Shown piece by piece: positions 1 through 64,000 of a stretch of DNA of 64,000 nucleotides (positions are counted from its first letter, which is position 1; every line of letters starts with the position of its first letter). The stretch spans positions 23,479 through 87,478 of the forward strand of contig NZ_JAXLWP010000032.1 in NCBI RefSeq assembly GCF_046328425.1, read 5' to 3'. The stretch is from Kouleothrix sp. (GTDB taxonomy: Bacteria; Chloroflexota; Chloroflexia; Chloroflexales; Roseiflexaceae). The notes beneath the pieces were generated by a model. It was not told the DNA's origin. It was given only the letters and a program-made list of their open reading frames with translations, and did no database searches. Made by a program: the position numbers and the translations under genes.

Positions 1-219
1 GACAAAGCCGGCGCGTACGGCATCCAGGGGCTCGGCGGCCGGCTGGTGCGCGCGGTCGGCGGCAGCTACACCTGCGTTGTCGGCCTGCCGCTGCCGAACC
101 TGCACCGGCTGCTGGCAGCCGCTGGCTTCAGTGGATTACACGACCCAGCCGACGCATACCAGCGCTGGATCCAGGCACAGGGAAAGGAGCCGCTGCCATG
201 CCCTCCCACCTTTCCATAA
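1..219 (+). CDS. Maf-like nucleotide pyrophosphatase, C-terminal fragment (5' end outside window)
   Basis: Frame-1 translation [38 protein letters not shown] matches the conserved Maf C-terminus (AYGIQ ... GSY.NVVGLPL). Stop TAA at 217-219. Overlaps the next gene start. Confidence 0.6.
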
Positions 220-950
220 AGCTGCTGATCGTCGACGATCACCCGCTGTTTCGCCAGGGCGTGCGGTCGGCGCTTTCGGCCTACGACGACATCGACGTAG
301 TGGCCGACTCGCCGAGCGGCGAGGATGCGCTGGAGTGGCTCGAGTCGGCACCGCCCAACCGCGAGCCGAACGTCGCGCTGGTCGATCTCAACCTGCCGGG
401 TATGAGCGGAATCGAGCTGACGCGCCGGCTACGCCACCAGTACCCGAGCCTGGGCGTGGTGATCCTCAGCATCCACGAGAGCGACGACCACGAGTTCAGC
501 GCGCTCGAAGCCGGCGCGGCCGATTATCGCTCGAAGGATGTGCACCCCAAAGAGCTGGCCGATGTCGTCCGGCGCGTCGCGCGCGGCGAGTACGTGATCA
601 ACGATATGGTCGAGAAGCCCAAGGTGGCCAGCCGGCTGCTCTCGCAATTCCGCAGCCTCTCGCAAGGCTACGACTCGACCGACCCCGAGTTTCCGCTGTA
701 CAACAAGCTCAGCGACCGCGAGATCGAGGTGCTCGAGCGTATCGCCGGCGGCGGCAGCAACAAAGACATTGCCGACTCACTCGGCATCAGCACGCAGACG
801 GTGAAGAACCATATTTCGTCGATCCTGCGCAAGCTCTCGCTCAACGACCGCACCCAGGCGGTGATTATGGCGCTACGGCGCGGCTGGATCGGCACGCCCG
901 ATATGCTCCCCGGTATTGCCCCCGACGCCGACCTGGGCGATGTTGATTGA
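198..950 (+). CDS. NarL/FixJ-family response regulator (REC + LuxR HTH)
   Basis: N-terminal receiver domain ([15 protein letters not shown] ... DLNLPGMSG) and C-terminal LuxR HTH ([43 protein letters not shown]). RBS AAGGAG upstream of the ATG. Confidence 0.9.
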
Positions 951-1051
951 TGCCCACGGCGCTGTGAAGCTGGTGCAGCTGCGGCATGCGGCTTCGCCAG
1001 GCACGGCTGCAGAATCAATCGGCGCAATGGCCACAGGGCATACCTGGCGGC

Positions 1052-3628
1052 CTACCGCCCTACGGTGATGCTGCTGATGTTGTTATACGGCCCGCCGTGC
1101 AGCTCGTGCGATTCGAGCACTGCGCCATAGTCGGTGTTGACATTCGCCGAGTCGACTTGGGCGTAGATAACATCGCCTGGCGCGATCGGCGTGCTAAGCT
1201 GGCTCAGCGCCGGGTGGTAGAACTGGTCGCCAACCACAAGGGTGAGCCCGGCGTTAGGCGCCAGCGGCAGGCCGCCCGAGGTCACGCCCCACACCAGCCC
1301 TTGTTTCCCTAGCTTCGGCCAGGTCTCGTTCACATGCGTCGGCGGCACAGCCGGGTTGATATACGCGTCGACCCAGAACGCATTCGTTACCGCGGCGCCG
1401 CCAATATTTTTGATCGTCACCTGCACCTGCCCGCCCACTACTGCGATCCGCTCGACGATCAGATCGGGCTCGCTCAGCTGCGCAACCACCGGCAGATACA
1501 CACGGAACGATCGCTCTGGCGCGTCTACGCGCGTGGCCGTGGGCGTACTTGTCGCCGTGCGCGTAGCCGTGCGCGTGGCCGTTGGCGTGCTTGTCGCCGT
1601 GCGCGTGGCCGTTGGCGTGCTTGTCGCCGTGCGCGTAGGCGTGCGGGTGGGCGTTGGCGTGCGGGTGGGCGTTGCCGTGCTGGTTGCGGTATTCGTCGCC
1701 GTAGGCGTATTTGTCGCCGTGCGCGTGGGCGTTGCCGTGTTCGTTGCGGTATTTGTCGCCGTGCGGGTGGGTGTTGCCGTGTTCGTTGCGGTATTCGTCG
1801 CCGTGGGCGTAGGCGTCGCCGTGCGTGTAGGCGTAGCCGTGGCTGTTGGTGTGCTCGTAGCAGTATTCGTAGCCGTGGCTGTTGGTGTGCTCGTAGCGGT
1901 ACTCGTAGCCGTGGCCGTTGGGGCTGCCTGCACCTGAACAAACACCTTCGCCGCGGCGCTGGCCGCGCGCCCATCGCCAGCACCGTAGAAGAACGTATCG
2001 GTTCCGCTGAAGCCAGCGGGCGGGCTGTAGCGTACATACCCGCCGCTGATCGCAACGCTGCCACCGCGCGCCGAAACCGGCTGCACAAACTGAAGCGCGA
2101 GCGGGTCGGCGTCGGCGTCGGCGTCGTTTGCCAGCACCGCGAATGTAGCCGGTGTATCAACCAGGGTGCTGAAGCTATCGTCGCGGGCGGTTGGCGGATG
2201 GTTTTCGGCCGGCTGCACAAGCGTACCGGGCGAGGTGATCGCGATCGTCCCAACAATCGCCGCCGGCGCCCCGCCGTTGGCGTTGTTGAGATCGATATTC
2301 TGCTGCGGCGTCAGTGCGCCGTCGCCCTCGAGCGCGAATGGCGCGGCGTTCGCAGCCGCCTGCTCGAGCCGGATGTTGCGCACGTCGACGGTATTGCCCA
2401 GCAAGCTTAGCGTCGCCGTGACCGCCGGGCCGCCGGAAAGCAGGCTGATCGCGGCGTCGGAAGCGGCCGGCGCGGCAGACTGCACGCTGTTGATCACGCT
2501 ATTATCGCGGATGATCAGATCGTATGTGGCCGCGCCCAGCGCCTGCGCCGCTATCCCGCTGCCGCTGGCGCCATCGACATGGTTGCCCGCGATCAGCGCG
2601 TGCTGCTGCCCGCCCGTGCCGTTGGAGCCTACGAGCGCGATCGCGTCGCCGCCAACCGCGCTCACCTGGTTGCGCAGCACCTGCGCGCCGATCCGCGCAC
2701 CCGCCTGCGCCTCGAGCCGCACGCCGCCATCCCGCGCCACCGTGGTAATGCTGGTATCAGCTATTGTTATGTTAAGCTCTGGCGCGCCGTCGGCGGTGCC
2801 GGCCACAATCGCCGGGCCAGCGTCGCCGGCAAGGCCGGTGATCGTGTTCCCAGTTACCCAACCATTGAACGCCGCGGCGCCCGAAGCCCGGAGCGCCACC
2901 GCGCTGCCGCGCAGGTTGGTGAAGGTATTTGCGTCGAGTGTGGCGCTGACAACCGCGCTGGCGGCGCTAATCTCCACGCCCATGCCGCTACCGCTCGGGC
3001 TAGCGCCGCTGCTAAAGCTATTGCCGGCGATGGTAAGCGCAGCCGCGCCGCCCTGCAGGGCGATACGTACGCCCGCGTGAGCGGTATCGCTGAAGCTATT
3101 GCCGGCCAGCAGCACATTCGTAGCCCCGGCCGCCATGCTTAGATCAATCGCGTCGTGCGCGGCGGGGTCGCTGCCGATCGGGCCAAAGCTGCTGTTGGCA
3201 ACCACAAGGCCGGGGAGATCGGCAAGCGCCACGCCATCGGCATCGGCGCTGGCTATACGCAGGCCGTCGAGCGTCAGTACGCCATTGAACGCGCCACTAT
3301 TCTGAATTTTCACGCCCGCACCGCCCAGCGCGGCGCTGCCAGGCCCGTCGAGCGCGAACAATGTGAGGTTACCGGTTGCGCCACCGGACGCGCTGCCCAT
3401 GCGTGCGATATCGACATTTTCGTCGTAGCTGCCGGCGCGGATGAGCACTGCATCGCCGGGGCTGGCGTGATCGATCGCCGCCTGAATGCTGGCGAAATCG
3501 CCCGCGCCGGGGCCGACTATCAGCACCGCCGCATACACATTGGCCATGGGGCGAGCGAGCCACGCGGCTGCCAGCGCCAATGCCAGCACCAGCGCCGCCC
3601 AACGGCCAGCAGTGGTTCTTCGAAGCAT
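1052..3628 (-). CDS. secreted right-handed beta-helix repeat protein with Thr/Pro/Ala tandem-repeat linker and C-terminal CARDB-like domain
   Basis: ATG at 3628 is preceded by AAGGAG and followed by a signal peptide ([27 protein letters not shown]). Long run of NxxGxxG/TxTxT beta-helix repeats. About 130 aa of PTATxT repeats, then [22 protein letters not shown] (CARDB-like). The ORF track's N-terminal extension back to 3709 is not supported by an RBS. Confidence 0.75.
1530..1920. repeat. in-frame DNA tandem repeats encoding the (P/A/S/N)T(A/R)T Thr-rich linker
   Basis: Repeated gccgtgcgcgt(a/g)g(c/g)cgt(t/g)ggcgtg units are visible directly in the sequence. The translation is ...[23 protein letters not shown]... 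Confidence 0.7.
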
Positions 3629-3711
3629 GTGCGGCTCCTTTACGCTCGGCGCCAGCGTCCGCTGAGCGGCCAAAACGCAGCGCGGCGCCGTCGCGCGTCT
3701 GCTTATCATAC

Positions 3712-4165
3712 CAAATTCGCTTGATTACTTACACTTTGGTGGGGGTTTGGGGGCGGCTTCGCCGCACCCAAAGTTCTTTTTGTGCTGCACTACCTGGCGA
3801 AGCCACGCAGTGCAATACAATCTATAGGTGTATGACTTACGCAATTGGCGCCTTTAGCCGTCGGCAGAGCGGTACTATGTTCCGTATCGTGTGCGGTGTT
3901 TCCGCACGGAGCACGGAAACACCGCACACAGAAGATGAATAAGTACCATGCTGCCGCAGGCAAATGCACCCGATTGAGCGAGCCGAACAAGGCAACTGCG
4001 TAAGTCCTAAGAAGCTGTTTGAAAAGGGTGGTTTGGAGGGACAAAGTCCCTCCAAGTTTCCACTTTTTCTGGCGGGTGGCGGCCACGAATGTGGCCGCCA
4101 CCCGCCAGAAAAAATGCGAGGGGGCAAAGCCCCTCGCTCACCCCCTTTTCAAACAGGCTCTAAGG
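3712..4165. repeat. composite REP/BIME-like mosaic (modules B, H, G, I, C)
   Basis: ccaaattcgcttgattacttacactttggtgggggtttggggg (module B) recurs at 29293, 38490(rc), 62670(rc) and 63926. Hairpin gtgtgcggtgtttccgcac / gcggaaacaccgcacac (module G) recurs at 9975 and 58535. gaaaagggtggtttggaggga ... ttctggcgggtggcggccac ... gtggccgccacccgccagaa ... (module C) recurs at 10190, 22225 and 29355. Confidence 0.8.
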
Positions 4166-4551
4166 TGATCAAGCGAAGAGTGTATCATAGCACGAGTGGC
4201 GCGACGCCCAGCCAAACAGCACGATCGCACCGCTCGGATCAAAGATAACTGAAACGCGTGTGGAAATACTAAGCTTTGCAGTAATGCCTGAATGGGCCTA
4301 TATATACTAGCGTAGGCCAGAGCGGGGCACATTTCAAGAAGATCATACGATACCAAGGGTAAAGAATCTACAAGCCGCAGCTCGCGGCCCGGTATGCCAC
4401 CGTAAAAACGGCAGCCTCCGGTCGCTGGCATAGCGAGCAGGGCAGCACCGCACAGCGGCGCCGCTCGTGCGATAGTGCTGCATCGTGCCAGCGCTATGAT
4501 AGCGGGGCGCATGCTATAATCCGCCTGATGGTTCGACACAAGGCGGCATGA

Positions 4552-5361
4552 ATGACCACAATTCTGATTGTGGGCGCGGCCGACACGGGGCGCGCGCCGA
4601 TCGCGGCGGCGCTGCTGCAGCGCCTGCTCGATACACAATACCCCGGCGCCCGCGCCGAGAGCGCCGGGGTGCTGGGCCACGACGGCGACCCGGCCGAGGT
4701 TGAGGCGCGCGACACAATGCTGCACATGGGCATCGACCTCTCGGGGCACCGCGCGCGCTCGGTCGACGACGCGCTCGCCGCTGCTGCGGCGCTGCTGCTG
4801 GCAATCGACAGCGGCACCGCGCTGGTGCTGCGCGGGCGCTTCCCAGGCGCGGCCGCGCGCGTGGCCACGCTGGGCGAGCTGGCCGGGCGCAAGCGCGACG
4901 TTCCCGACCCCTTTCGGATGCAGATCGGCGCCTGGATGACCTACGCGCGCGAGATCGACGACATGCTGCGGGCCGCACTGCCGGCGATCATCGGCCGAGC
5001 CGGGCCAGCTGCGCCCGCCCCGGCCGGTGGCGTACCTGAAGCCCGCCGCGCCGCCGCCGAGCGCCTGGCGCAGCTGCTCCAGCTCGCTGCCACCATGCCC
5101 GACGTGATCGATTGGAGTGTAGCGCGCGGCCGCCTCGATGGCGACCTAGCCGCCTGTGGCAGCGCGCCAGCTGGCGCATCCGACATGGTGGCCGCCTACG
5201 TGGCGCTGCTGCGCGCCGGGCTGGCGATGCTGCCGCCCAAGCCGGCGGCCACGCAGCTTGGGCTGCTGCAGCGCGCCACCACCCGCCTGAGCGACCCGGT
5301 CGACCAGGCGGCGCTGAACGAGCTTTCGGCGCAGGTCGCAAGCCTGCCAGCACTGGCCTGA
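4552..5361 (+). CDS. LMW protein-tyrosine-phosphatase/ArsC-fold protein lacking the catalytic Cys (P-loop VGAADTGRAP), with Ala-rich C-terminal extension
   Basis: ILIVGAADTGRAPIAAALL aligns to the LMW-PTP P-loop V-C-x-G-N-x-C-R-S, with both Cys replaced by Gly and the Arg retained. The DVPDPF motif (DPYY-like general-acid loop) is present. TGcTATAAT extended -10 at about 4511-4522. Confidence 0.65.
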   Translation: MTTILIVGAADTGRAPIAAALLQRLLDTQYPGARAESAGVLGHDGDPAEVEARDTMLHMGIDLSGHRARSVDDALAAAAALLLAIDSGTALVLRGRFPGAAARVATLGELAGRKRDVPDPFRMQIGAWMTYAREIDDMLRAALPAIIGRAGPAAPAPAGGVPEARRAAAERLAQLLQLAATMPDVIDWSVARGRLDGDLAACGSAPAGASDMVAAYVALLRAGLAMLPPKPAATQLGLLQRATTRLSDPVDQAALNELSAQVASLPALA

Positions 5362-5366
5362 CGAGT

Positions 5367-6455
5367 ATGAAACGCCCACATCCGCTGTTTCTAGCGCATA
5401 CCCAGCCCGGCTTCGAGGCAATCGCGATCGACGAGATCGAGCGCAGCGTCGATGGCGCGCGCGTGCGCGGCACCCGCAGCGTAGCGGACAAAAACGGCAT
5501 GGTGCTATTCGAGTACCCCGGCGACGCCCGCGACCTGCTGGCGCTGCGCACACTCGAAGACCTATTTGTGGTGGTGGCTACGCTGGAAAACCTGCCGCCC
5601 ACGCGCGAGGCGCTGCGGCTGATCGAGGGCTCCGCCGCGCGCGCCACGGCGATCACCTCGGCGCTAGCGCAGGCCCGGCAGATCGCCCCCGCGCGCGGCG
5701 GCAAAGGCAAGCTGCGCTTCAGGGTGATTGCCCGGCAGGTCGGGCGCGCGGCCTACCGGCGCGTCGACGCACAGCAGGCGCTGGCGCGCGGCCTGGCGGC
5801 GCGCGACGACCACCGCTGGCAGGCGGTAGACGATGGCGGCATCGAGTTCTGGCTGACGCTGCTGCCCGGCGAGGCGATCGTGGCGCTGCGGCTCAGCGAC
5901 GAACGCATGCGCCACCGCGAGTACAAGATCGAGCACCTGCCGGCCTCGCTACGGCCCTCGGCGGCAGCGGCGCTGGCGTGGCTCACGCGCCCGCACGACG
6001 ACGACCTGTTTCTCGAGCCAATGTGCGGCGCGGGCACGCTGCTGATCGAGCGGGCGCACATGGGCCGCTACCGGCTGCTGCTGGGCGGCGACATTCGCGA
6101 AGAGGCGGTGGAGCTGGCGCGCGCGAACATCGGGCCGCGCTACAAGCCGATCGAGCTGCGCCAGTGGGACGCGCGGGCGCTGCCTGTCGACGCGGGTGCG
6201 GCCAGTGCCGTGGCGGTAAACCTACCGTTTGGCCGGCAGATCGGCAGCACCGAAGACAACCGCCAGCTGTACCCGGCATTTTTGCGCGAGATGGCGCGCG
6301 TGCTGCGGCCGGGCGCGCGGCTGGTGGCGCTCACCGGCGACCGGCGCACCCTGGAAGAATCGCTACGGCGCGCAAGCAAGCTCGCGCGCCGTGAGTTCTT
6401 CCCAGTGATGCTGCTCGGCCAGCCGGCCGGCGTATACGCCCTGGAGCGCGTGTAG
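5367..6455 (+). CDS. THUMP-domain class I SAM-dependent RNA (m2G/m6A-type) methyltransferase (RlmL/Trm14-like, COG0116)
   Basis: MKRPHPLFLAHTQPGFEAIAIDEIE is a THUMP N-terminus. LEPMCGAGTLLIERA is the SAM-binding motif I. NLPFGRQIG is the NPPY-like catalytic motif. The ORF-track extension to 5112 is Arg-rich and overlaps the upstream gene. Confidence 0.8.
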   Translation: MKRPHPLFLAHTQPGFEAIAIDEIERSVDGARVRGTRSVADKNGMVLFEYPGDARDLLALRTLEDLFVVVATLENLPPTREALRLIEGSAARATAITSALAQARQIAPARGGKGKLRFRVIARQVGRAAYRRVDAQQALARGLAARDDHRWQAVDDGGIEFWLTLLPGEAIVALRLSDERMRHREYKIEHLPASLRPSAAAALAWLTRPHDDDLFLEPMCGAGTLLIERAHMGRYRLLLGGDIREEAVELARANIGPRYKPIELRQWDARALPVDAGAASAVAVNLPFGRQIGSTEDNRQLYPAFLREMARVLRPGARLVALTGDRRTLEESLRRASKLARREFFPVMLLGQPAGVYALERV

Positions 6456-6469
6456 CGCCAGGGGCGGCG

Positions 6470-7033
6470 CTACTTCACGCGCTCGATATACTCGCCGGTG
6501 CGCGTATCGACCCGCACTGTGTCGCCTTGGTTGACGAACGCCGGCACCTGGATCACCGCGCCGGTCTCGAGCGTCACCGGCTTGGTGATGTTGGTGGCGG
6601 TGTCGCCGCGCACCGCAGTGGACGCCTCAGTCACCTGCAGCGTCACGAAGAATGGCACCTCGACGCCCAAGATCTTATTGTCGTCGTAGAACAGCACGTC
6701 GGCCATCTCGGCTTCTTTCAGGAACCTGGCCGGCTCGCCGATATCGTCCTCGGGGATCTCGAGCTGCTCGAACGTCTCGGTGTCCATGAAGTGATACATC
6801 TGGCCTTCGCGGTAGAGAAACTGCATGGAGCGCTTGTCGACGCGCACAATCTCGATATCCGAGCCGGCGCGAACGCGATCCTCGATCACCTTGCCGGTCT
6901 GCACGTTCTTGAGCTTCATGATCACCATGGCGCGCCAGTTGCCTGGGGCATGGTGGTGAAACTCGACCACGCGATGCAGCGTGCCGTTATAGCGAATAAT
7001 AATATTTGTGCGCAGATCCGACGTCGTGGGCAT
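6470..7033 (-). CDS. efp: elongation factor P
   Basis: MPTTSDLRTNIIIRYNGTLHRVVEFHHHAPGNWRAMVIMKLKNVQTGKVIEDRVRAGSDIE ... over 188 aa is a full-length EF-P match, including the KPG-region equivalent. The ORF-track start at 7165 is an extension. Confidence 0.9.
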   Translation of the reverse strand: MPTTSDLRTNIIIRYNGTLHRVVEFHHHAPGNWRAMVIMKLKNVQTGKVIEDRVRAGSDIEIVRVDKRSMQFLYREGQMYHFMDTETFEQLEIPEDDIGEPARFLKEAEMADVLFYDDNKILGVEVPFFVTLQVTEASTAVRGDTATNITKPVTLETGAVIQVPAFVNQGDTVRVDTRTGEYIERVK

Positions 7034-7158
7034 GGCTATGCTCCTGTCCATAGAAAGCGCCGCCCTGTGGTGGCGGCGCAGTGAAAGCCGTGAAACGCTA
7101 CCCGATATTATAGCAGAACTGCGCCGGTAGGCGCAAATTGCGCGCCGGCACGCGCGGG

Positions 7159-8694: not shown

Positions 8695-9972
8695 ATGCGA
8701 AGCACCGTTACGCGCATGCGCGTCGCGCTGGTGGTGCTGGCGCTGCTGCTGGCTGCGTGCGGCCAGGGCCAGGCGCCTAGCACCGCCGCACCTACCGCCG
8801 CAAGCCAGCCAACCGCGGCGCCCGCCGCCGCACAGCCCACCGCCGCGGCTCCGAGCGGGGCCGCCGCGTCGGGCGAGCCGATCCCGATCGGCATCGCCGT
8901 AGCCCAGACGAGCAACGTCGCCCTGTTCGGCCAGGAGCAAGTCGCCGGCGCGCAGGTCGCCGAGCAGTACTTCAACCAGAAGGGCGGGGTCAATGGCCGG
9001 CCGATCAAGCTGATTCTGCAGGATACCGGCGGCGACGAGGCCGGCGCGATCAATGCCTTCAACACGCTGATCAACAACTACAAAGTGGTTGGCATCGTCG
9101 GCCCGACGCTGTCGCAGCAGGCCTTCGCCGCCGACCCGATCGCCGACAAGGCTGGCGTGCCGGTGATTGCGCCTTCGAACACCGCCAAGGGCATCCCGCA
9201 GATCGGCGACTACATCGCGCGCATCTCGGCGCCCGTCTCGGCCGTGGCGCCAAACGCAGTCAAGGCCGCGCTGAATATCAACCCGAATATCAAGAAGGTG
9301 GTTGTGCTGTTCGCGCAAAACGACGCGTTCAGCAAATCCGAGACGGTGGTGTTCCAGCAGACCGTCACCAATACATTCAAGCTCGACCTGCTCGGCGTGC
9401 AGACGTTCCAGACCACCGACACTGATTTCACGACCCAGGCGACCTTTGTGCTCGGCGCAAACCCGGACATGGTGATCATCTCGGGCCTGGCGGCCGACAG
9501 CGGCAACCTGGTGAAGCAGCTGCGCGATCTGGGGTACAAGGGCGTGATCGTCGGCGGCAACGGCCTGAATACGCCGAACCTCTTCCCGGTGTGCAAATCC
9601 GCCTGCGATGGCATTCTGGTGGCGCAGGCCTACAGCTACCAATCCGAGAGCGATGTCAACAAGGCGTTCCGCGAGGCATTCAAAGCCAAGCAGAACAAGG
9701 AGCCGGGGCAGTTCAGCGGGCAGGCGTTCACAGCGGTGCAGGTGTTCGTCGAAGCGCTGGCCGCGCTCGACAAGCAGTCGCCGATCGCCTCGGCCGACCT
9801 GGCGCAGCTACGCACTGCCCTGAACAAGCAGATCCTGGCAGGCACCTACGACACCCCGCTTGGCGCGATCTCGTTTACGCCCGAGGGCGATATCAACCAG
9901 AAGCAGTTCTATGTGGCTCAGGTCAAGATGAGTCCGGACGGCACCAGCGGCGCGTTCGAGTTCATCAAGTAG
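8695..9972 (+). CDS. branched-chain amino acid ABC transporter substrate-binding lipoprotein (LivJ/LivK family)
   Basis: GAGGAGG RBS before the ATG at 8695. Lipoprotein signal LALLLAAC. Typical Leu/Ile/Val-binding periplasmic domain (GPTLSQQAF ... NDAFSKS ...). TGgTATAAT extended -10 at about 8626-8636. Immediately followed by the livHMGF genes. Confidence 0.85.
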   Translation: MRSTVTRMRVALVVLALLLAACGQGQAPSTAAPTAASQPTAAPAAAQPTAAAPSGAAASGEPIPIGIAVAQTSNVALFGQEQVAGAQVAEQYFNQKGGVNGRPIKLILQDTGGDEAGAINAFNTLINNYKVVGIVGPTLSQQAFAADPIADKAGVPVIAPSNTAKGIPQIGDYIARISAPVSAVAPNAVKAALNINPNIKKVVVLFAQNDAFSKSETVVFQQTVTNTFKLDLLGVQTFQTTDTDFTTQATFVLGANPDMVIISGLAADSGNLVKQLRDLGYKGVIVGGNGLNTPNLFPVCKSACDGILVAQAYSYQSESDVNKAFREAFKAKQNKEPGQFSGQAFTAVQVFVEALAALDKQSPIASADLAQLRTALNKQILAGTYDTPLGAISFTPEGDINQKQFYVAQVKMSPDGTSGAFEFIK

Positions 9973-10404
9973 CCTATCGCTGCTCTGTGTGCGGTTTTTC
10001 GCGCTAGCGCGGAAAAACCGCACACAGCTGCCGGGGGCCGCAATCTCGCCGTACTGCGATGCCACACCACGCAACTGCGTAAATCCTCATCAGGCGATCT
10101 ACGCGGTGGGCGGTTTGCCCCCGGCAGAGCGGTACTTTTTCGTTTAAAGTGCTCAGAAGGTGGCGCTCCACGCCACCTTCTGAAAGCTGTTTGAAAAGGG
10201 TGGTTTGGAGGGACGAAGTCCTCCAAGTATCCACTTCTTCTGGCGGGTGGCGGCCACCCGCCAGAAGAAGTGCGAGGGGCTATGCCCCTCGCGCACCGCC
10301 TTTTCAAACAGGCTCTGAGCACAAAAGATCGGCAATACCTTGCTGCCGCAGGCAGAATCGACGTACGAGGCGGGGCACCGCATAGCTCGAGTGATCATAA
10401 CTCT

Positions 10405-22139: not shown

Positions 22140-22320
22140 TTAGGGCTTAGGCAGTTGGCGCGCTCTGCCTTCGGCAGAGCGCTACTCAATCTCTGTAGCG
22201 CAAGTGCGTAGCTCCACTCCTAGGAAGTTGTTTGAGAAGGGAAGTGCGAGGGGCATAGCCCCTCGCGCACCCCCTTTCAAACAGGCTCTAAAGATATACG
22301 ATACGCCGGGCCCCGGGTTA
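22140..22320. repeat. REP/BIME-like modules (H and partial C) between DUF4013 gene and hydrolase gene
   Basis: ttagggcttaggcagttggcgcgctctgccttcggcagagcgctac (module H, recurring at 41120, 47490 and 62860). gaagggaagtgcgaggggcatagcccctcgcgcaccccctttcaaacaggctctaa (module C tail). Confidence 0.7.
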
Positions 22321-24973: not shown

Positions 24974-25079
24974 TGGCTAGTAGGGCTAGGCCTTACGCGT
25001 CTGCGTGGTTCCGCATCACAGTGCGGCGAGTTTGCAGCCCGCGGCAGCATGGCACCGGTCCATCTTCTGAGTGGGGTTT

Positions 25080-25230
25080 TCGGCGCGGAGCGCGGAAAAC
25101 CCCATACAGTTATTGGATAGTACCGCTCTGCCGAAGGCTGAGCGCGCCAGCCGCGTAAGCCCTAGAGACATCGCGCACAGCTACACAGAACGTACCGCTC
25201 TGCCGGCGGCAGAGCGCGCGAGCGTGCAAA
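25080..25230. repeat. REP-like modules G and H (two copies)
   Basis: ggcgcggagcgcggaaaacccc. gtaccgctctgccgaaggctgagcgcgcc. gtaccgctctgccggcggcagagcgcgcg. Confidence 0.65.
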
Positions 25231-25234
25231 GCCG

Positions 25235-28461: not shown

Positions 28462-29292
28462 ATGGCCAACAAAGACCGGCGGCGCGGCCAGTCGCAGCGC
28501 AAGCACGCCCACCGATCGCTCAACCGCGCGGTGATCAGCGGCAAGCAGACCGAGGACGAGCGGCTGCTGGCGAGCCCGCGCGCCGAGCCGGATTTCACGC
28601 ACTCCGACCCGTGGCGCGTGTTCAGGATCATGGGCGAGTTTGTCGAGGGCTTCGACGCGCTGGCCGGGCTGGGCCAGGCGGTGACAATCTTCGGCTCGGC
28701 GCGCATCCGCGAGGGCGACGCGATGTACGCCGCAGCCGAAACCACCGCGCGGCTGCTGGGCGAGTCCGGCTTCACGATCATCACCGGCGGCGGGCCGGGG
28801 ATCATGGAGGCCGGCAACCACGGCGCGCGCCAGGCCGGCGCGAAGTCGGTGGGCCTGAATATCGAGCTGCCGTTCGAGCAAGGCGTGAACGCGTTTGTCG
28901 ATATCGCGATCGAGTTCCGCTACTTTTTTGTGCGCAAGATGATGTTCGTGAAGTACGCGCAGGCGTTCGTGATCTTCCCCGGCGGCTTCGGCACCATGGA
29001 CGAGCTGTTCGAGGCGCTGACGCTGATCCAGACCGGCAAGGTGCAAGATTTCCCAGTCATCCTGTTCGGCTCGGCCTACTGGCAGGGCCTGATCGGCTGG
29101 CTGCGCGACACAATGCTGGCGGGCGGCAAGATCGCCGAGGCCGACCTGAACCTGCTGGTGCTCTGCGACTCGCCCGAGGAAGTGCGCGATCTGATCGTCA
29201 GGTCGGCGCGCGAGCAGCGCTGGCGCAGCGAGCACGAGGCAGCCGCGCGCGCCGTGACGCGCCAGGTGCTGAGCGAGGGAGAGTCTGGGTAA
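28462..29292 (+). CDS. LOG-family protein (TIGR00730; cytokinin riboside 5'-monophosphate phosphoribohydrolase / lysine-decarboxylase-like)
   Basis: AVTIFGSARIREGDAMYAAAETTARLLGESGFTIITGGGPGIMEAGNHGA ... VIFPGGFGTMDELFEALTLIQTGK contains the GGGxGxM and PGGxGTxxE LOG motifs. The start could be 28435. Confidence 0.8.
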   Translation: MANKDRRRGQSQRKHAHRSLNRAVISGKQTEDERLLASPRAEPDFTHSDPWRVFRIMGEFVEGFDALAGLGQAVTIFGSARIREGDAMYAAAETTARLLGESGFTIITGGGPGIMEAGNHGARQAGAKSVGLNIELPFEQGVNAFVDIAIEFRYFFVRKMMFVKYAQAFVIFPGGFGTMDELFEALTLIQTGKVQDFPVILFGSAYWQGLIGWLRDTMLAGGKIAEADLNLLVLCDSPEEVRDLIVRSAREQRWRSEHEAAARAVTRQVLSEGESG

Positions 29293-29600
29293 TGCCAAAT
29301 TCGCTTGATTATTTACACTTTGGTGGGGGTTTGGGGCGGCTTCGCCGCCCAAATTTCTTAGAAGCCGTTTGAAAAGGGTGGTTTGGAGGACTTCGTCCTC
29401 AAGTATCCACTTTTTCTGGCGGGTGGCGGCCACTGGAACTGTGGCCGACCGCCAGCATAGCCCCTCCGCACCCCTTATTTGCAATGCGGCTCTTATTGTG
29501 TTGCACGACGTGGCTTCGCCACGTCGTGCAACACAATCGATACGTGATCAAGCGAACAGCGTATCACTCAAAGAAATTTCGGGGGCGGCAATGACGCCCC
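29293..29600. repeat. composite REP/BIME-like mosaic (modules B, C, A, D)
   Basis: Module B at 29293. Module C at 29355. Hairpin gtgttgcacgacgtggcttcgccacgtcgtgcaacac (module A, recurring at 3775, 38440 and 62627). tttcgggggcggcaatgacgcccccgaacc (module D, recurring at 39520, 45150 and 46305). Confidence 0.8.
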
Positions 29601-29611
29601 CGAACCTGCGC

Positions 29612-30001
29612 TTAGCCCAGCGGCGCGAACAAATCGATCACTGTGCCGTCGGGGTCGGCGACCTGGGCGTAGCGCTGGCCCCAGAACGCATCCCACGGCT
29701 GCTTGTGGCCATGGAAGCCGGCAGCCACGATCTGGCGGTACAGCGCATCGACATCGGCCGGGCTATCGCACTTGAACGCCAGGCCGATGCGCTGGCCGCG
29801 TGGCGGCTGCCAATCGGCGTCGAAGCTGCGGATCATATCCTCGCTATCCCACGCGATCCGGTAGCCGTTGGGGGTGATCACCTCCACGTGCCCCTCAGCC
29901 TCGGCGCCTTCGGCGATCGCCAGCCCCAGCAGCCGGTAGAACGCCAGCGCGCGGGCCATGTCGCTCACGATGATGCCTATCATATCGGGTTGTACTGCCA
30001 T
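29612..30001 (-). CDS. VOC-family (glyoxalase/bleomycin-resistance fold) protein
   Basis: MAVQPDMIGIIVSDMARALAFYRLLGLAI ... GYRIAWD ... DPDGTVIDLFAP is the VOC beta-alpha-beta-beta-beta fold signature. The ORF-track 5' extension to 30346 is rejected. Confidence 0.75.
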   Translation of the reverse strand: MAVQPDMIGIIVSDMARALAFYRLLGLAIAEGAEAEGHVEVITPNGYRIAWDSEDMIRSFDADWQPPRGQRIGLAFKCDSPADVDALYRQIVAAGFHGHKQPWDAFWGQRYAQVADPDGTVIDLFAPLG

Positions 30002-35205: not shown

Positions 35206-35218
35206 TTGCACCCTCACA

Positions 35219-38397: not shown

Positions 38398-38419
38398 CCG
38401 CACCAGCGGCATCCTCATA

Positions 38420-38560
38420 CGCTGTTCGCTTGATCACGTATAGCTTGTGTTGCACTCCGTGGCTTCGCCACGGAGTGCAACACAAGAAATTTGGGGGCGT
38501 CTTCGCCGCCCCCAAACCCCCACCAAAGTGGCAGTAATAAAGCGAATTTGGTATCACATA
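38420..38560. repeat. REP-like modules A and B(rc)
   Basis: gtgttgcactccgtggcttcgccacggagtgcaacac. aaatttgggggcgtcttcgccgcccccaaacccccaccaaagtggcagtaataaagcgaatttgg. Confidence 0.8.
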
Positions 38561-39469: not shown

Positions 39470-39580
39470 CTTGCTCACATTCGCTTTGGGATGCCCTGCC
39501 CGGCTTGGCCGGGCGGGGCATCCCAAAATTTCGGGGGCGACAGTGCCGCCCCCGAACCCGCGCAAGCAAGCGACCAGCGT
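39470..39580. repeat. REP-like module D hairpins
   Basis: gggatgccctgcccggcttggccgggcggggcatccc. tttcgggggcgacagtgccgcccccgaaccc. Confidence 0.7.
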
Positions 39581-39588
39581 GGGGCGCG

Positions 39589-41097
39589 CTAGGCGCCTTT
39601 ACGCGTATAGCGGTGCTTCACGCCAACCGGGAAGTACTCCGGGTCGCCGAGCGGCCGCAGCGTCACGCGCGGCAGCTGGTACTCGGGCGGCACGTAGTTG
39701 GCGAACTCGCTGTTGAGCCGCCGCAGCTGTGTCACGATCGACTCGGCGATCGCGCCGGCCTTGGCGTCGTCGGCGGCCACGCCAGGCGCCAGCTCCACCG
39801 CAATCGCCAGAAAGCGATTGCGATCGGCATCCTCGCGCGACTCAAGCACGAACTTGCCCGTCACCCAGCCGGTGATCGGCGGCTGCTCGAGCCCGACCGT
39901 CACGTTTTCGGGGTAGATGTTCGCGCCAAAGTACGAGATGGTGAAATGCGAGCGGCCGAACACATACACGAACGGCAGCGGCCGCACGCCGCGCGCGCCG
40001 GCGCCAAGCTCGGCCAGCGGGTCGAAGCCACGCCCGGCCAGCCAGGCCAGCAGATCGTTGTAGCCCAGTAGACCGCCGGTGTCGGCGATATGGTAGCGGA
40101 TCAGCGGGATGCCATTCTCGCCCGAGAACAGCAGCGTGCCGTCGCGCGCCTCGAAAAAGCGGCTCAGCGGGTCGTACTGCGCCAGCGTGGGCAGGCGCGC
40201 CTCGCCGAACAGCTCGGCCGCGTCGGCAGGGTGTGCCGCCAGCCAGCGGCGGATGCAGATGCTCAGCGGCGTCTCGTTCGCCAGCACGCCCGCGTCGGCG
40301 GTGCCATACAGCGAGGCCGAGTCGAAGCACGGCTCGGAGGCGCCGACGCGCTCGCCCACCAGCGTGCGCCACTCTTCGCTGAACACCTCGCCGGCCATCA
40401 CCCACTTCACGCGCAGCCGCGACCAGTCGAGCCCGCGCGCGCGCCCGGCGTCTACCACGTCCTTCAGAAACGGCGGGTAGCCGAGCAGCACCACCTGCTC
40501 GTAGGCCGGGCCGAGCTCGCCAACCACCCGCAGGATCTCGTCGCGGTTGTTGCCCGGCGTGATCACGCTGATCGGGTAGCCCTTGGCGGCCAGGTAGCGG
40601 CAGCACGCGGCGGTAAACATGCCGCCAACCCAGGTGCCCAGCGCGAAGCACACCACCGCCAGCGTGCGGCGCTCGTCGGCGCGAAAGCTGTCGTGGAACA
40701 CCTGCTCGAAGCGCCTGGCGATCTGCAGCTCGTCGGCCAGCGCGCGCGGCCAGAAGGTCGGCTGCCCGGTCGATCCCGACGACACCGCGATCATGGCGCA
40801 GGCCGCCAGCGCGCCATCGCGGCACAGCTCGGCCAGCGAAAAGCGCCGCAGGTAGTTGTCTTTCGTCACCAGCGGCAGGCGCGCGAAGTCGGCCGGCTCG
40901 CGCACCGTCGCCGGGTCGATGCCATGCTCGGCAAGAAACGCCCGGTAGGCCGGCACGCGCGCCACCGCCGCGTGGAACAGCGCGAGCGCGGCGTGCTCGG
41001 GGCGCTCGGCGCGCTGCCGATCCAGCACGGCGTCGAGCGGCGTCGCAAGAAACGCCTGCCATGCCGCGAGCGCCTCCTCGCCAGGTTGGCTCTGCAT
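39589..41097 (-). CDS. phenylacetate-CoA ligase (PaaK)/coenzyme F390 synthetase-like adenylate-forming enzyme
   Basis: PLVTKDNYLRRF ... IAVSSGSTGQPTFWP (P-loop-like SSGTTG motif) ... LLGYPPFL ... YGTADAG has the PaaK-family architecture. About 500 aa. Confidence 0.7.
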   Translation of the reverse strand: MQSQPGEEALAAWQAFLATPLDAVLDRQRAERPEHAALALFHAAVARVPAYRAFLAEHGIDPATVREPADFARLPLVTKDNYLRRFSLAELCRDGALAACAMIAVSSGSTGQPTFWPRALADELQIARRFEQVFHDSFRADERRTLAVVCFALGTWVGGMFTAACCRYLAAKGYPISVITPGNNRDEILRVVGELGPAYEQVVLLGYPPFLKDVVDAGRARGLDWSRLRVKWVMAGEVFSEEWRTLVGERVGASEPCFDSASLYGTADAGVLANETPLSICIRRWLAAHPADAAELFGEARLPTLAQYDPLSRFFEARDGTLLFSGENGIPLIRYHIADTGGLLGYNDLLAWLAGRGFDPLAELGAGARGVRPLPFVYVFGRSHFTISYFGANIYPENVTVGLEQPPITGWVTGKFVLESREDADRNRFLAIAVELAPGVAADDAKAGAIAESIVTQLRRLNSEFANYVPPEYQLPRVTLRPLGDPEYFPVGVKHRYTRKGA

Positions 41098-41119
41098 TGC
41101 TCTCACTTCCTCTTTTTTA

Positions 41120-41295
41120 GGGCTTACACAGTTGCGCTGTTCGGCTTCCCGAAGCCGTGCATGGTGCCTGCGGCAGCACGGTTCTTTTTGATCATCGTGT
41201 CCAATTTCCGCGCTGTGCGCGGAAATTGGACACCTCTACGGAATGAGGTACCGCTCTGCCGAAGGCAAAAACGCGCACTGCGTTTGTCGTGTCAA
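41120..41295. repeat. REP-like modules H, F, H
   Basis: ttagggcttacacagttgcgctgttcggcttcccgaagcc. Hairpin gtgtccaatttccgcgctgtgcgcggaaattggacac (module F, also at 47542). gtaccgctctgccgaaggc. Confidence 0.75.
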
Positions 41296-41317
41296 CAAAG
41301 CAGAGTATCCCCTGCAC

Positions 41318-45068: not shown

Positions 45069-45084
45069 GATACCAGCTCCGCTT

Positions 45085-45200
45085 GCCCGCTTTGTTTTTG
45101 TGATGCCCTGTCCGGCTTTGCCAGGCAGGGCATCACAAAAACAAAGTTCGGGGGCGGCAATGCCTCCCCCGAACCCGCACCATCAAGCAAGCGATCAAAC
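45085..45200. repeat. REP-like module D
   Basis: gtgatgccctgtccggctttgccaggcagggcatcac. aagttcgggggcggcaatgcctcccccgaaccc. Confidence 0.75.
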
Positions 45201-45662
45201 AGAGTTGATATGACTATCGGGGATGGTGCCGATATACCGGCGTACGTTTGTGAGCTGGTGTGCGTCGCGGATGAACTGCTCGTAAAAGCCATGCTGCCAT
45301 ACCTCGGCCGGGCGCTCGGGCGCCACGTCGCGCAGCCACGCGGCCCACTGCACAGCCGCAAACGCCTTGAACGAGCCAACCACTGTGCCGATCGACGGCT
45401 TGAACGCCATTGGCGTGCTCGGCTCGTTCAGCCATATAACCGCGCGGAAGTGGCTCGGCATCACCGCCCACGCGTCTAGCCGCACTGCCGGAAACCGGTC
45501 GGGTAGCGCACGCCACGCGCGCTCGACGATCATGCGCAGCTGCACGTCTTCGAAGAGCGGCAGGTGCTGGTGCGTGTCGATCGCCACATAGTACGCCTCG
45601 GCACAGATGTACTCGTACCCTGGCTGGCGCGGGCGGTTGGACGTGGATGGTATGTGGGTCAT
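45195..45662 (-). mobile_element. IS200/Y1-transposase-fold protein, REP-associated tyrosine transposase (RAYT)-like, with degenerate HUH motif (H-F-R)
   Basis: YYVAIDTHQHLPLF (vs Y.VT.RT..R.P.F), AWAVMPSHFRAVIWL (vs AW.LMPNHVHLL.), VWQHGFYEQFIRD and NVRRYIGTIP (vs catalytic-Tyr region Y.xxNP). 155 aa. Embedded in REP-rich spacers. Confidence 0.65.
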
Positions 45663-46234: not shown

Positions 46235-46345
46235 GGAGTTATACCAACTCCGTTTGATTACTTGTGTTTTCTTGTGCGGCGCCCGGCTTTGCCGGGCGCC
46301 AGAAAACGAAATTTCGAGGGCGGCAAAGCCGGCCCCGAACCCCAC
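46235..46345. repeat. REP-like modules E and D
   Basis: ccaactccgtttgattacttgtg (module E, also two copies at 62565-62615). gtgcggcgcccggctttgccgggcgccag ... tttcgagggcggcaaagccggccccgaacccc. Confidence 0.7.
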
Positions 46346-46444
46346 CATAATCCAAGCGATCAGCCGGATGCTGAAAACGCCTCGCGCGGGCGGCATCTCG
46401 CTAAGCCACTTAGCAGACACAGCCACGGTTTTCGGCTATAGTAG

Positions 46445-47484: not shown

Positions 47485-47665
47485 ATACTTAGGGCTTACG
47501 CAGTTGGCGTGTTCAGCCTTCGGCAGAGTGGTACTTTCCTTGTGGACGTGTCCAATTTCCGCGCTGCGCGCGGAAATTGGACACATGATATCAAAAAGCA
47601 CCGTGCTGCCGCAGGCACTGATGCACGGCTTCAGGAAGCCGAACAGCGCAGCTACGTAGGTTCTG
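47485..47665. repeat. REP-like modules H, F, I
   Basis: ttagggcttacgcagttggcgtgttcagccttcggcagagtggtac. gtgtccaatttccgcgctgcgcgcggaaattggacac. gtgctgccgcaggcactgatgcac ... (module I, also at 3945 and 62775rc). Confidence 0.75.
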
Positions 47666-47801
47666 ATGCTTTTCAAATACGGTGATCGTAGGACGTTTGC
47701 CGCAAAGGTACAAAGTCTCGAAGGCACGCTGCAACAGCATATTCTTTGCGTCTTTGTGGCTATGTGAAGCGTAGTGGCTCCAGCCAGCCTTGCCAGGCGC
47801 G

Positions 47802-58473: not shown

Positions 58474-58648
58474 CCGGCTCACCATCCATTCATCCAAAAC
58501 ACCATGCCCGATGGTATACTACTAAAGCTACTGTGCGCGGTTTTTCCGTGCGGCGCGCGGAAAAACCGCGCCATCAAAGATTAGGCGCAGTTTGGCGCCT
58601 TACCCCGTTCGAGCAGACCAAGGAGCAGGCAACCACCTGATACATACT

Positions 58649-62559: not shown

Positions 62560-62935
62560 TCATAGCAACTCCGTTTGATGCCTTTCTTTTTTTCACTTAT
62601 ACCAACTCCGTTTGATCACTTATAGAGTGTGTTGCACTACATGGCTTCGCCACGTAGTGCAACACAATAAGAAGGTGCGGCTTCGCCGCCCCCAAACCCC
62701 CACCAAAGTGTAAGTAATCAAGCGAATTTGGTATTACAGGACAAACGCGGTCACCTGCGATATTGGCTCCTTCTGCCTGCGGCAGCATGGTACTTCGCTT
62801 TCTTTTGTGCTGAGAAGGTGGCGCTTTGCGCCACCTTCTCAGCACCATTACATGAAAAAGTACCGCTCTGGCGAAGGCTGAGGGCGCCAAGCGTTTGCCC
62901 TAAGATTATGTTGCACTACGTGGCTTCGCCGCTTG
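62560..62935. repeat. composite REP/BIME-like mosaic (E x2, A, B rc, I rc, H, partial A)
   Basis: caactccgtttgat appears twice. gtgttgcactacatggcttcgccacgtagtgcaacac. ttcgccgcccccaaacccccaccaaagtgtaagtaatcaagcgaatttgg. gctgagaaggtggcgctttgcgccaccttctcagc. gtaccgctctggcgaaggctgagggcgcc. atgttgcactacgtggcttcgcc. Confidence 0.8.
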
Positions 62936-63925: not shown

Positions 63926-64000
63926 AGCTTCCCCTGATTACTTACACTTTGGCGGGGGTTTGGGGTGGCTTCGCCGCCCCAAACTTCTTTTTCTTAGGAG
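63926..64000. repeat. REP-like module B copy at window edge
   Basis: gattacttacactttggcgggggtttggggtggcttcgccgccccaaactt. Confidence 0.7.

Follow-up and report, generated by a model that had tools for sequence, protein, structure and literature searches.

The stretch of DNA that was analysed, called the window in the following, comprises 64 kb of a Kouleothrix chromosome (Chloroflexota, 67% GC, an activated-sludge filament). An initial annotation had listed 14 intergenic spacers as carrying hairpin-forming modules, and the sequences given for them are present in 14 of the 14. A BLAST comparison of the window with itself placed dispersed short repeats in these spacers only, and the remaining repeats (1532-1855, 30316-32136, and 34136-35617) are intragenic. 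We defined the copies with three nhmmer profiles, termed T1, T2, and T3, which gave 10, 4, and about 11 matches in the window, respectively, with E-values down to 1e-51 (Table 1). The elements sum up to 3,014 bp or 4.7% of the window, in agreement with the earlier estimate of about 5%, and constitute about 36% of its intergenic DNA. Compared with dinucleotide shuffles the diagnostic 13-mers GGCAGAGCGGTAC (8 matches versus 0.16 expected), CTGTTTGAAAAGG (6 versus 0.01), TTCGCTTGATYAC, which is the TIR motif of T3 (10 versus 1.65), and GCTGCCGCAGGCA (5 versus 1.03) are all in strong excess. The earlier description as dispersed, hairpin-forming, non-coding intergenic repeats that occur in both orientations and in varied combinations is confirmed, and so is the view that their density far exceeds what terminators alone would account for. 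However, the modules are not found at essentially every spacer longer than 80 nt, as had been stated, but in only 13 of the 27 such spacers of an approximate gene map of the window. The genes around these 13 spacers are convergent in four, tandem in seven, and divergent in two cases. A location at the 3' ends of convergent genes and in operon spacers is thus correct, but the two divergent spacers, which are promoter regions, had been omitted. One of the element-free spacers, 27978-28434, is a T-box-like leader.

At least eight families of modules had been proposed. Instead, the modules are pieces of three composite MITE-like families; all eight keep a fixed order within the three profiles and are constant components of the longer elements. 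The elements have lengths of 135-185 bp and are bounded by TIRs, and each of them forms a closed fold of several hairpins. T1 is built as TAGGGCTTACGCAGTTG...variable central hairpin...CAACTGCGTAAGCCCTA, T2 as GAAGCTGTTTGAAAAGG...three hairpins...CCTTTTCAAACAGGCTC, and T3 as ATACCAAATTCGCTTGATTAC...two hairpins...GTAATCAAGCGAATTTGGTAT. The TIRs match at 14 of 14 positions in the core of T2, at 20 of 24 in T3, and at 15-16 of 17-18 in T1, and the terminal motifs are found as pairs on opposite strands. Judged by the definition of MITEs in PMC3733652, T1-T3 have the appropriate size (less than about 500 bp) and no transposase coding, they have TIRs, and they present both filled and empty sites, with paralogous copies providing empty sites and with orthologous spacers being differently occupied in sister species.

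The target sites differ between the families. The T2 copies are flanked by TAA/TAA, TGA/TGA, TTA/TTA, and TAG/TAA, which means that a 3-bp TNA is present at four of four copies and perfectly repeated at three. A 3-bp TNA (TWA) is what is expected of a MITE of the IS5-family (IS1031 group) or PIF/Harbinger type. The repeats flanking T1 are inconsistent, with 5 bp (AGGTG) at one nested copy and none at the other copies of the window. Two T1 copies from sister species have flanking repeats of 7 or 8 bp, which read TCAGTAA in one of them (L052) and, depending on the element boundary chosen, TCAATAA or CAATAAA in the other (L070). The T3 copies of the window do not have any recognisable target duplication. 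Their ends are always ATA...TAT, and a TA duplication could be hidden there.

Table 1. Elements T1, T2, and T3 and their derivatives in the 64-kb window.
Feature	Position	Strand	nhmmer E-value	Remarks
T3, major part (TIR, spacer, hairpin B, hairpin A)	3708..3830	-	1.1e-39	
T1, full-length, inside T3	3830..4010	+	4.3e-50	TIR 16/17
T2, full-length, at terminal TAA of T1	4011..4161	+	9.3e-49	TSD TAA/TAA
T3, displaced far terminus of the copy at 3708	4162..4190	-	0.006	T3 model positions 1-33; TIR motif at 4165-4177(-)
T1, 5'-truncated (central hairpin and right arm)	9966..10087	+	1.3e-9	
T1, central hairpin (GTGCTCAGAAGGTGGCG...) split by T2	10088..10390	+		Matches 10099-10184 and 10314-10363
T2, within T1 central hairpin	10183..10316	+	8e-44	TSD TGA/TGA
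T1, internal-deletion derivative (left arm and right terminus)	22140..22223	+	3.6e-11	
T2, internal-deletion derivative	22224..22289	+	5.2e-8	Flanks TAG/TAA
T1, full-length	24987..25168	-	1.6e-46	TIR 16/18
T1, partial (one arm)	25170..25233	-	5.1e-7	
T3, interrupted by T2	29291..29578	-	6.1e-17 (29291-29359); 3.8e-20 (29494-29578)	TIR motif at 29300(+)/29544(-)
T2, between the two hairpins of T3	29360..29493	+	8.2e-38	TSD TTA/TTA
T3, extra hairpin-B-like fragment	29578..29613	-	0.003	Terminator-like site
T3, full-length	38417..38554	+	5.8e-43	
T3, diverged subfamily copy	39470..39590	+	4.8e-14	Hairpin A with compensatory changes
T1, full-length	41115..41297	-	3e-48	
T3, second subfamily, full-length	45069..45211	+	4.3e-37	
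T3, diverged, in divergent (promoter) spacer	46241..46368	+	6.8e-17	
T1, full-length	47487..47666	+	8.1e-51	
T1-type central hairpin, solo	58518..58571	.	9.4e-5	18-bp stem
T3 terminus (ATAGCAACTCCGTTTGATGCC), solo	62560..62590	+		By sequence; no profile match of its own
T3, full-length, intact, reference copy	62599..62734	+	9.4e-43	TIR 20/24
T1, full-length, GTGCTGAGAAGGTGGCGC-type central hairpin	62737..62912	-	5.3e-41	
T3, fragment (half of hairpin A)	62913..62935	+	5e-4	Match 62892-62930
T3, partial, continuing past the window end	63927..64000	-	1.9e-11	Match 63929-63992
Long spacers without elements (among others)	18863-19180, 27978-28434, 36602-37146, 57167-57537			

The mosaic appearance of the spacers is the result of adjacent and nested insertions of these elements. 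One T2 has inserted into a T3 and another into a T1 hairpin, intact paralogues supply the respective empty sites, and the breakpoints within the clusters coincide with element termini and TNA duplications. In the first spacer (3708-4190) the T3 starting at 3708 is interrupted at 3830 by a T1 and a T2, and its other end is found at 4162-4190, so that copies of the TIR motif at 3716(+) and 4165(-) bracket the combined insert. The 5-bp direct repeat AGGTG lies on either side of the T1, and if the insert is removed together with one AGGTG the register of T3 is restored. The sequence of events was probably that T3 was present first, that T1 inserted into T3, and that T2 inserted at the terminus of T1. 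The deleted T2 derivative at 22224..22289 is likewise located at a T1 terminus. In the second spacer (9966-10390) the truncated T1 begins directly 3' of the stop codon of a solute-binding-protein gene, and the neighbouring T1 hairpin regains its complementarity if the T2 and one TGA are taken out. For the T2 that separates the two hairpins of a T3 (29360..29493), the intact T3 at 62599-62734 represents the empty site and reads ..TTCTTATTGTGTTGCAC. A gene on the minus strand has its stop codon separated from its terminator-like hairpin (45066-45037) by the T3 at 45069..45211.

All three families fold considerably better than shuffled sequences, with z-values of -5.6 for T1, -12.7 for T2 (copy 4011..4161, which folds as a cloverleaf), and -8.0 for T3 (reference copy 62599..62734). 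Co-variation of stem positions between copies, which the initial annotation had suggested looking for, is evident in hairpin A of T3, in which 10 of 18 pairs have compensatory changes and 96.8% of the cells are paired. This level of covariation was reached by none of 500 shuffles, and folding of the alignment revealed 11 covarying pairs. The central hairpins of T1 have kept stems of 15-20 bp in 11 copies despite widely differing arms. In hairpin A of T3 G-U and A-C mismatches are equally common, and there is therefore no sign of selection at the level of the single strand (RNA). The upkeep of the hairpins despite divergence may be caused by selection on the structure, be it for transposition or for RNA stability, or by templated correction from one arm to the other.

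The modules had been assumed to be co-opted as terminators or mRNA stabilisers, which is plausible only in part. The terminator pattern of a GC-rich hairpin followed by a T-run is present at the third hairpin of T2 on the minus strand (4137-4116 and 10292-10272), and judged from this pattern the hairpin could probably terminate transcription in one direction. Hairpin B of T3 matches the intrinsic terminator pattern weakly, and hairpin A of T3 and the central hairpins of T2 and T1 do not show it. The largest hairpins have the T-run at the 5' side and the A-run at the 3' side and are thus not terminators in either direction. These hairpins and the elements in the divergent promoter spacers do not fit the proposed role, while the T2 hairpin may.

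Every copy is retained in strains that are 98-99.9% identical, and presence/absence polymorphisms were not seen among strains of 98.4-99.9% identity. In strains L010 and L013 the T1 at 47487..47666 has the opposite orientation, its flanks being the same. The strand with the best score is plus in L010 but minus in L012 as well as in L014, with each of the three loci being antiparallel to the window. Simple recombination between the TIRs alone does not account for this inversion because the alleles differ more at the termini than in the flanks. In strain L074, the central hairpin loop of the T2 at 4011..4161 is flipped. Of 35 ends of metagenome contigs mapping in the window, 18 fall inside elements, whose share of the sequence is 4.7%. 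Four contigs end at 41197 or 41237 within the T1 at 41115..41297, L034 ends at 62786 within the T1 at 62737..62912, L010 ends at 46318 within the T3 at 46241..46368, and L012 departs from the window sequence at 46241, at the start of the same T3. The contigs L075 and L012 connect elements of the window with other loci. L012 carries an SNF2 helicase. Upstream of the window, a T3 copy is located 6.6 kb before its start (L074 3222-3357), and this is the one clear copy in 9.8 kb. Outside the window there is also a lipoyl-synthase locus with a T1 terminus followed by a T3-like hairpin. In two sister Kouleothrix species T1 was found at non-orthologous sites. Around thrS, species C has four T1 copies in 21.8 kb and species D has one, their sites are empty in the window, and the filled sites of the window are empty there. 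None of the four relatives sampled around thrS yielded a T2 or a T3.

Database searches gave the following results. Translated spacer ORFs did not have homologues in protein databases, the concatenated six-frame translation of the first spacer did not match any protein, and a 151-aa ORF spanning the second spacer had one spurious match in a HMMER search against 1.84 billion representatives. The first spacer did not match plasmid and phage collections in BLASTN searches, and a probe for each of T1, T2, and T3 found chance matches or none in viral contigs. In Rfam, no family was obtained for the elements at the gathering and E<=1 thresholds, apart from hairpin-driven miRNA noise. The T3 20-mer ACTTTGGNGGGGGTTTGGGG had 8 single matches in contigs of GTDB representatives and 19 in metagenome contigs, all by chance; these belong to unrelated DNA of different GC content.

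We consider it likely that three families of small, non-autonomous, non-coding transposable elements of the MITE type have settled in the intergenic spacers. T1, T2, and T3 would be new MITE families of an already known kind of genomic parasite, and their density is unusually high. In a single strand, the termini of such an element would pair as a basal stem carrying one to three long hairpins. T2 may be moved in trans by a transposase whose target duplication is a 3-bp TNA, and because of this 3-bp duplication the enzyme would be of the DDE type. A transposase gene was not found among the genes of the window or the fetched loci, nor was an autonomous partner with matching termini, and mobilisation is therefore something we infer. 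T1 seems to be the oldest family, its copies being 58-78% identical and present in sister species, and T2 and T3 are apparently specific to this species. Transposition is presumably slow now because the copies are fixed among strains that are about 1% apart. The palindromes are apparently still recombinationally active, as suggested by the whole T1 and the T2 hairpin loop that are inverted between strains. Effects on host genes would be secondary, with the elements being transcribed together with the genes as parts of 3' UTRs and operon spacers.

The initial annotation had labelled the repeats REP/BIME, which would imply short palindromic units that owe their origin and spread to a domesticated tyrosine transposase of the IS200/IS605-like kind (RAYT) and that have been combined into BIME-like clusters. 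Like the REP/BIME/REPIN sequences of Enterobacteria and Pseudomonas, the elements are abundant extragenic palindromes in both orientations and in mosaic clusters, both kinds occur downstream of genes for binding proteins in transport operons, the entire T1 forms one long imperfect palindrome as in REPINs, and T3 does not have a visible target duplication. REPs with GTAG have been described from Chloroflexi, and a REP is a palindromic unit of 20-40 nt with a GTAG (or CGTC) end (PMC3733652). However, no conserved stem in T1, T2, or T3 has GTAG or CGTC at its base. The elements are 4-5 times longer than REP units and have TIRs, and the hairpins occupy fixed positions within them, with the one at 58518-58571 being the sole free one. 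BIMEs are alternating REP units with conserved linkers, whereas the clusters here are explained by nested and adjacent TIR elements. In addition, T2 duplicates 3 bp of its target, unlike elements moved by Y1 transposases, and neither a Y1_Tnp nor a RAYT domain was detected among the genes called in the window and its flanks. The label could thus not be kept, and we regard a REP/BIME origin as improbable. It is only slightly easier to imagine, and still unlikely, that the repeats are immobile structural RNA or DNA elements selected by the host, such as terminators, 3'-end stabilisers, sRNAs, or protein-binding sites, whose similarity reflects functional constraint. Strong covariation preserves the hairpins, the copies are stable across strains, one T2 hairpin with its T-run resembles an intrinsic terminator, and one cluster separates the gene of a binding protein from those of its permease. 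REPs are found at the equivalent place in the malE-malF operon of E. coli and the hisJ-hisQ operon of Salmonella. Such a role is hard to reconcile with elements in divergent promoter spacers, with elements that interrupt each other to the point of splitting a hairpin in the second spacer, and with orthologous spacers of sister species that are empty while different sites are filled. The orientation of the T- and A-runs at the major hairpins, the equal frequency of G-U and A-C mismatches in hairpin A, and the missing Rfam match also speak against it.

That the repeats stem from the local duplication of a segment, or form an array confined to this locus, rather than being a dispersed family, would agree with the scans of sequence collections, in which the T3 20-mer did not reveal further copies, and with the lower density in the 9.8 kb upstream. 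We give this very little credence, given that the copies are short, lie amid unrelated housekeeping genes over 74 kb, and occur in both orientations without flanking homology. Moreover, T1 is present at different sites in other species, contigs of many independent metagenomes break within the elements, and two contigs link the elements to other loci. Two further candidates were rejected. The elements are not attC-like sites, as there are neither GTTRRRY cores nor a cassette array, and T3 is hardly an IS200/IS605 PATE, because it has true TIRs, which PATEs lack.

As MITE families, T1-T3 have one of their closest counterparts in the BOX, RUP, and SPRITE repeats of Streptococcus pneumoniae, which are also three co-resident families of small structured non-coding elements (Croucher et al. 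2011, PMC3049150) and which are clustered and inserted into each other (PMC10969869, PMC3049150). In both systems, the repeats are bunched and mutually inserted, fewer in the closest relative and absent further off, stable between strains, which implies slow transposition, and co-transcribed with their neighbours, and one family each has a terminator-like hairpin. However, the sequences and the host phyla are unrelated, and BOX is modular (A-Bn-C) while T1-T3 have a fixed single-copy architecture. With Correia/NEMIS of Neisseria, ERIC, bcr1, and MITEAba12 the elements share a length of about 100-200 bp, TIRs, the absence of an ORF, the intergenic location, and a strong secondary structure when transcribed. 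Correia elements duplicate TA, in contrast to the TNA of T2, and T1-T3 have extra long internal hairpins with covariation. The IS1031 group recognises three nucleotides (PMC2516522) and PIF/Harbinger elements have a 3-bp TSD (PMC2213677). T2 resembles the IS5 family (IS1031 group) and PIF/Harbinger-Tourist by its 3-bp target duplication, which is TNA in T2; the relation is one of TSD length and pattern, and neither a cognate transposase nor a full-length IS was seen. The T2 terminus GAGCCTGTTTGAAAAGG presumably also resembles IS5-family and Tourist termini, which we take as a lead only. The small noncoding repeats (SNRs) of Deinococcus radiodurans comprise several intergenic families of 60-215 bp, part of which have inverted termini; their host genome is also GC-rich, and they are themselves poorly characterised. 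They are mentioned in PMC1978522 and are like T1-T3, by description only, in being several short intergenic repeat families of a high-GC host.

It is possible, although we advance this as a tentative proposal, that the Kouleothrix species has one of the heaviest MITE loads among prokaryotes, with about 5% of its DNA, a third of its intergenic sequence, and thousands of copies, that the elements are still recombining, and that their hairpins mark structure-dependent transposition or an RNA function. If so, such structure-dependent transposition could be single-stranded, T2 would be a bacterial counterpart of the plant Tourist elements, and the high load would explain the poor assembly of Kouleothrix genomes. 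The elements offer a natural system to ask whether hairpins are conserved by selection or by templated repair, with a palindrome flip-flop visible between near-identical strains, and they extend the small number of well-described cases of mutually nesting MITE families to the Chloroflexota. About 3 kb of otherwise unexplained mosaic spacer are now annotated, and the three profiles can be used for masking and annotating Kouleothrix genomes. In short-read assemblies of this organism, which is abundant in wastewater and causes bulking, the elements are points of breakage or mis-joining, and knowing them helps in finishing genomes and in reading apparent rearrangements. The draft of the K. aurantiaca isolate consists of 5,539 contigs.

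The repeats are a real and well-defined feature of the window and are reinterpreted as three new MITE-like families, T1, T2, and T3, of a kind that is already known. The initial annotation had divided them into at least eight families of palindromic REP/BIME-like modules filling essentially every spacer longer than 80 nt. Its quoted sequences are present in every spacer that it named, and a sensitive self-BLAST of the window confined the dispersed short repeats to these spacers, all other repeats being intragenic. Compared with dinucleotide shuffles, the window contains 5 to 600 times as many matches to four diagnostic 13-mers. Alignment of the spacers, however, places all eight modules, in constant order, inside three longer units (see table): modules 5-8 are parts of T1, module 3 is part of T2, and modules 1, 2, and 4 are parts of T3. 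gtgtccaatttccgcgc and gtgtgcggtgtttccgcac, seemingly distinct hairpins, are two forms that the T1 central hairpin takes. With nhmmer profiles, each built from three to five full copies, about ten T1, four T2, and about 11 T3 copies or fragments were found in the window with E-values down to 1e-51. Identity among copies is 58-78% for T1, 72-92% for T2, and 82-86% for the main T3 subfamily. All three families have terminal inverted repeats. The terminal motifs form opposite-strand pairs, and pairs 450 and 245 bp apart enclose nested inserts. In single-strand folds the termini build the basal stem (T1 z=-5.6; T2, a cloverleaf, z=-12.7; T3 z=-8.0).

Together the elements comprise 3,014 bp, or 4.7% of the window. 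According to an approximate gene map derived from Pfam matches and genes called on identical contigs, they make up about 36% of the intergenic DNA and occupy only 13 of the 27 spacers longer than 80 nt, so that their reach had been overstated. Because seven of the occupied spacers are tandem, four convergent, and two divergent, the elements are not bound to lie at 3' ends. The long spacer that contains 28000-28322 is free of elements, and the putative T-box-like leader there, which precedes a small ORF and thrS, would account for it.

Features discussed in the text (window positions unless a contig is named)
Feature	Position	Length	Details
T1		~180 bp	TAGGGCTTACGCAGTTGGCG-..GCCTTCGGCAGAGCGGTAC - spacer - 15-20-bp central hairpin - spacer - GTACCATGCTGCCGCAGGCA - ... 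CAACTGCGTAAGCCCTA
T2		~135-150 bp	GAAGCTGTTTGAAAAGG...three hairpins...CCTTTTCAAACAGGCTC
T3		~136-142 bp	ATACCAACTCCGTTTGATCAC - hairpin A (GTGTTGCAC...) - hairpin B (GGGGGCGGCTTCGCCGCCCCC) - CAAACCCCCACCAAAGTG - TAAGTAATCAAGCGAATTTGGTAT
T2 copy	4011-4161		flanks TAA/TAA
T2 copy	10183-10316		flanks TGA/TGA
T2 copy	29360-29493		flanks TTA/TTA
T2 copy	22224-22289		flanks TAG/TAA
Inverted T1	47487-47666		reversed in L010, L013
Upstream T3	L074 3222-3357		full copy, 6.6 kb upstream of window
T1 junction	4009		L075 13776-13900
T3 junction	46241		L012 11458-11657
T-box-like match	28013-28275, minus		RF00230, 53.4 bits, E=7.7e-9, below gathering score 93
T-box-like region	28000-28322, minus		TTGACA-16-TATGAT promoter-like site upstream; hairpin and T-run at 28027-28000
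Coding contig ends	23779-23781, 39675-39753, 43907-43949		outside T1-T3
Strain segment	L040 1-7207 vs 44846-45242	6.6 kb	beside sucC
Replaced sequence	L010 1-254, L013 1-140 vs 58494 onward		downstream of fmt
Tandem units	L052 4355-5600	1.2 kb	~309-bp units
Surface protein repeats	1490-1927		20 overlapping repeats, 12/18-nt period
Collar paralogues	34105-35737		three in tandem
Ig/RTX-repeat protein	repeats at 30316-32136	1,253 aa	long internal repeats

Insertion is recorded at several sites. The four T2 copies lie between 3-bp TNA direct repeats, three of them perfect, and paralogous empty sites are available for two T2 insertions. The intact T3 has ..TTCTTATTGTGTTGCAC at the place of ..TTTCTTA[T2]TTATTGTGTTGCAC in the interrupted one, and deleting T2 and one TGA makes the arms of the T1 central hairpin at 10150 perfectly complementary again. 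In the spacer at 3712-4165, T1 and T2 are nested within a T3, whose other terminus is now at 4162-4190 and whose register is restored by deleting the insert and one AGGTG copy. Since no T2 copy was ever found interrupted, T2 is the youngest family. Direct repeats of 7-8 bp flank two sister-species T1 copies (TCAGTAA in L052, a contig of species C, and TCAATAA or CAATAAA in L070); such a repeat is absent at most T1 copies of the window. The T3 copies show no flanking duplication, and their ends are invariably ATA...TAT.

On the features compared, the REP/BIME label does not fit these elements, as they have no GTAG or CGTC tag, their hairpins are not free units, T2 duplicates its target, and there is no RAYT gene within the window. 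Like MITEs they are small, end in terminal inverted repeats, have no coding capacity, and show both filled and empty sites; target duplication was found in T2 alone. The T2 termini presumably resemble those of IS5 (IS1031 group) and PIF/Harbinger-Tourist elements. The TNA duplication of T2 agrees with these two groups (PMC2516522, PMC2213677). The closest precedent for the three families is the BOX/RUP/SPRITE trio of pneumococcus, whose members are clustered, mutually inserted, sparser in the nearest relative, and slow to transpose (PMC3049150, PMC10969869). A literature search found no paper on repeats in Kouleothrix or on MITEs in Chloroflexota. The significance of T1-T3 would be greater if the density in the window held genome-wide.

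Every element copy holds its position across strains. The inverted T1 has identical flanks in the ~99% lineage, in contig L074 the loop of the 44-nt T2 central hairpin is reverse-complemented, and paralogous T3 copies also differ by loop flips (TTCG vs CGAA). Contig L075 departs from the window exactly at a T1 terminus into a T3-like hairpin beside a lipoyl-synthase gene, and L012 departs at a T3 terminus into a second T3 terminus and an SNF2 helicase gene; these junctions represent either real inter-repeat rearrangement or chimeric assembly across repeats. Of the contig ends mapping in the window, 18 of 35 lie inside elements, although these are not independent and involve seven of the 13 occupied spacers. 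This points to near-identical copies at other places in the genome, and the pattern would fit the draft of the K. aurantiaca isolate with its 5,539 contigs (PMC5826079, Table 2). Several independent metagenome contigs end in coding DNA, at what may be strain-variable segments or other repeats. Besides a two-component system, the segment in strain GCA_048223155.1 (L040) carries three unknown genes. At its borders, 233 bp from the 3' end of sucC are duplicated, and one junction lies 12 nt within T3. Downstream of fmt the ~99% strain has wholly different sequence, with a small ORF in place of a T1-type hairpin and an S41 peptidase gene.

Four relatives were reached via their ThrRS homologues, and about 20 kb around thrS were compared in each. 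Neither T2 nor T3 was found there in any of them. Species C (GCA_016722075.1; ThrRS 88% identical; 67% GC) has four T1-type copies at sites empty in the window, whose own occupied sites are short and empty in species C (e.g. the LOG/glyoxalase spacer with 74 nt vs 319 nt). Species D (89% ThrRS identity) has one T1, and neither species B (90%, 59% GC) nor the relative with 78% ThrRS identity has any of T1-T3 in these 20 kb. Species C also contains non-coding tandem units rich in GC-rich hairpins, another repeat family unrelated to T1-T3.

Stem pairing is kept between copies, with co-variation. In T3 hairpin A, 96.8% of the cells are paired among seven copies that represent four sequence types, and 10 of 18 pairs show compensatory changes; this pairing was matched by none of 500 shuffles, slid controls were 31-52% paired, and RNAalifold agrees with 11 covarying pairs in eight T3 copies. 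Eleven T1 central hairpins keep stems of 15-20 bp, even though no more than 2-9 of 16 arm positions are shared in some of them. Mismatches of the G-U and A-C types have the same frequency and thus do not point to selection on one transcribed strand. In view of the flips, templated correction between the arms of DNA palindromes explains the stems as well as selection does. The elements matched no Rfam family. The third T2 hairpin with ATTTTTT on the minus strand is predicted to resemble an intrinsic terminator, T3 hairpin B weakly so. In the largest hairpins the T-runs are 5' and the A-runs 3', giving a longer stem and not a terminator. Several elements sit between a stop codon and the terminator-like hairpin of that gene (e.g. 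45069-45211) and are therefore probably co-transcribed. Judged from sequence, the influence on mRNA stability or termination proposed in the initial annotation is possible but would be secondary.

The window is chromosomal DNA of 64-71% GC with ordinary housekeeping genes, including thrS, sucC, efp, fmt, recN, rplU-rpmA-rpmE, a liv-type ABC transporter, and three tRNAs. Its proteins belong to Kouleothrix sp. (TaxID 2779161; e.g. WP_409573294), with MFN8505007-050 numbered along the 87,478-bp contig, and contigs 98.4-99.9% identical to it are present in many activated-sludge metagenomes. Within genes, short-period repeats lie in that of a Big_9/beta-helix surface protein, which has 846 or 858 aa depending on the strain (L074 has 42 gap columns against window 1-7148). 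The three paralogous genes for phage-tail-collar (Collar) domain proteins adjoin the gene for the Ig/RTX-repeat protein.
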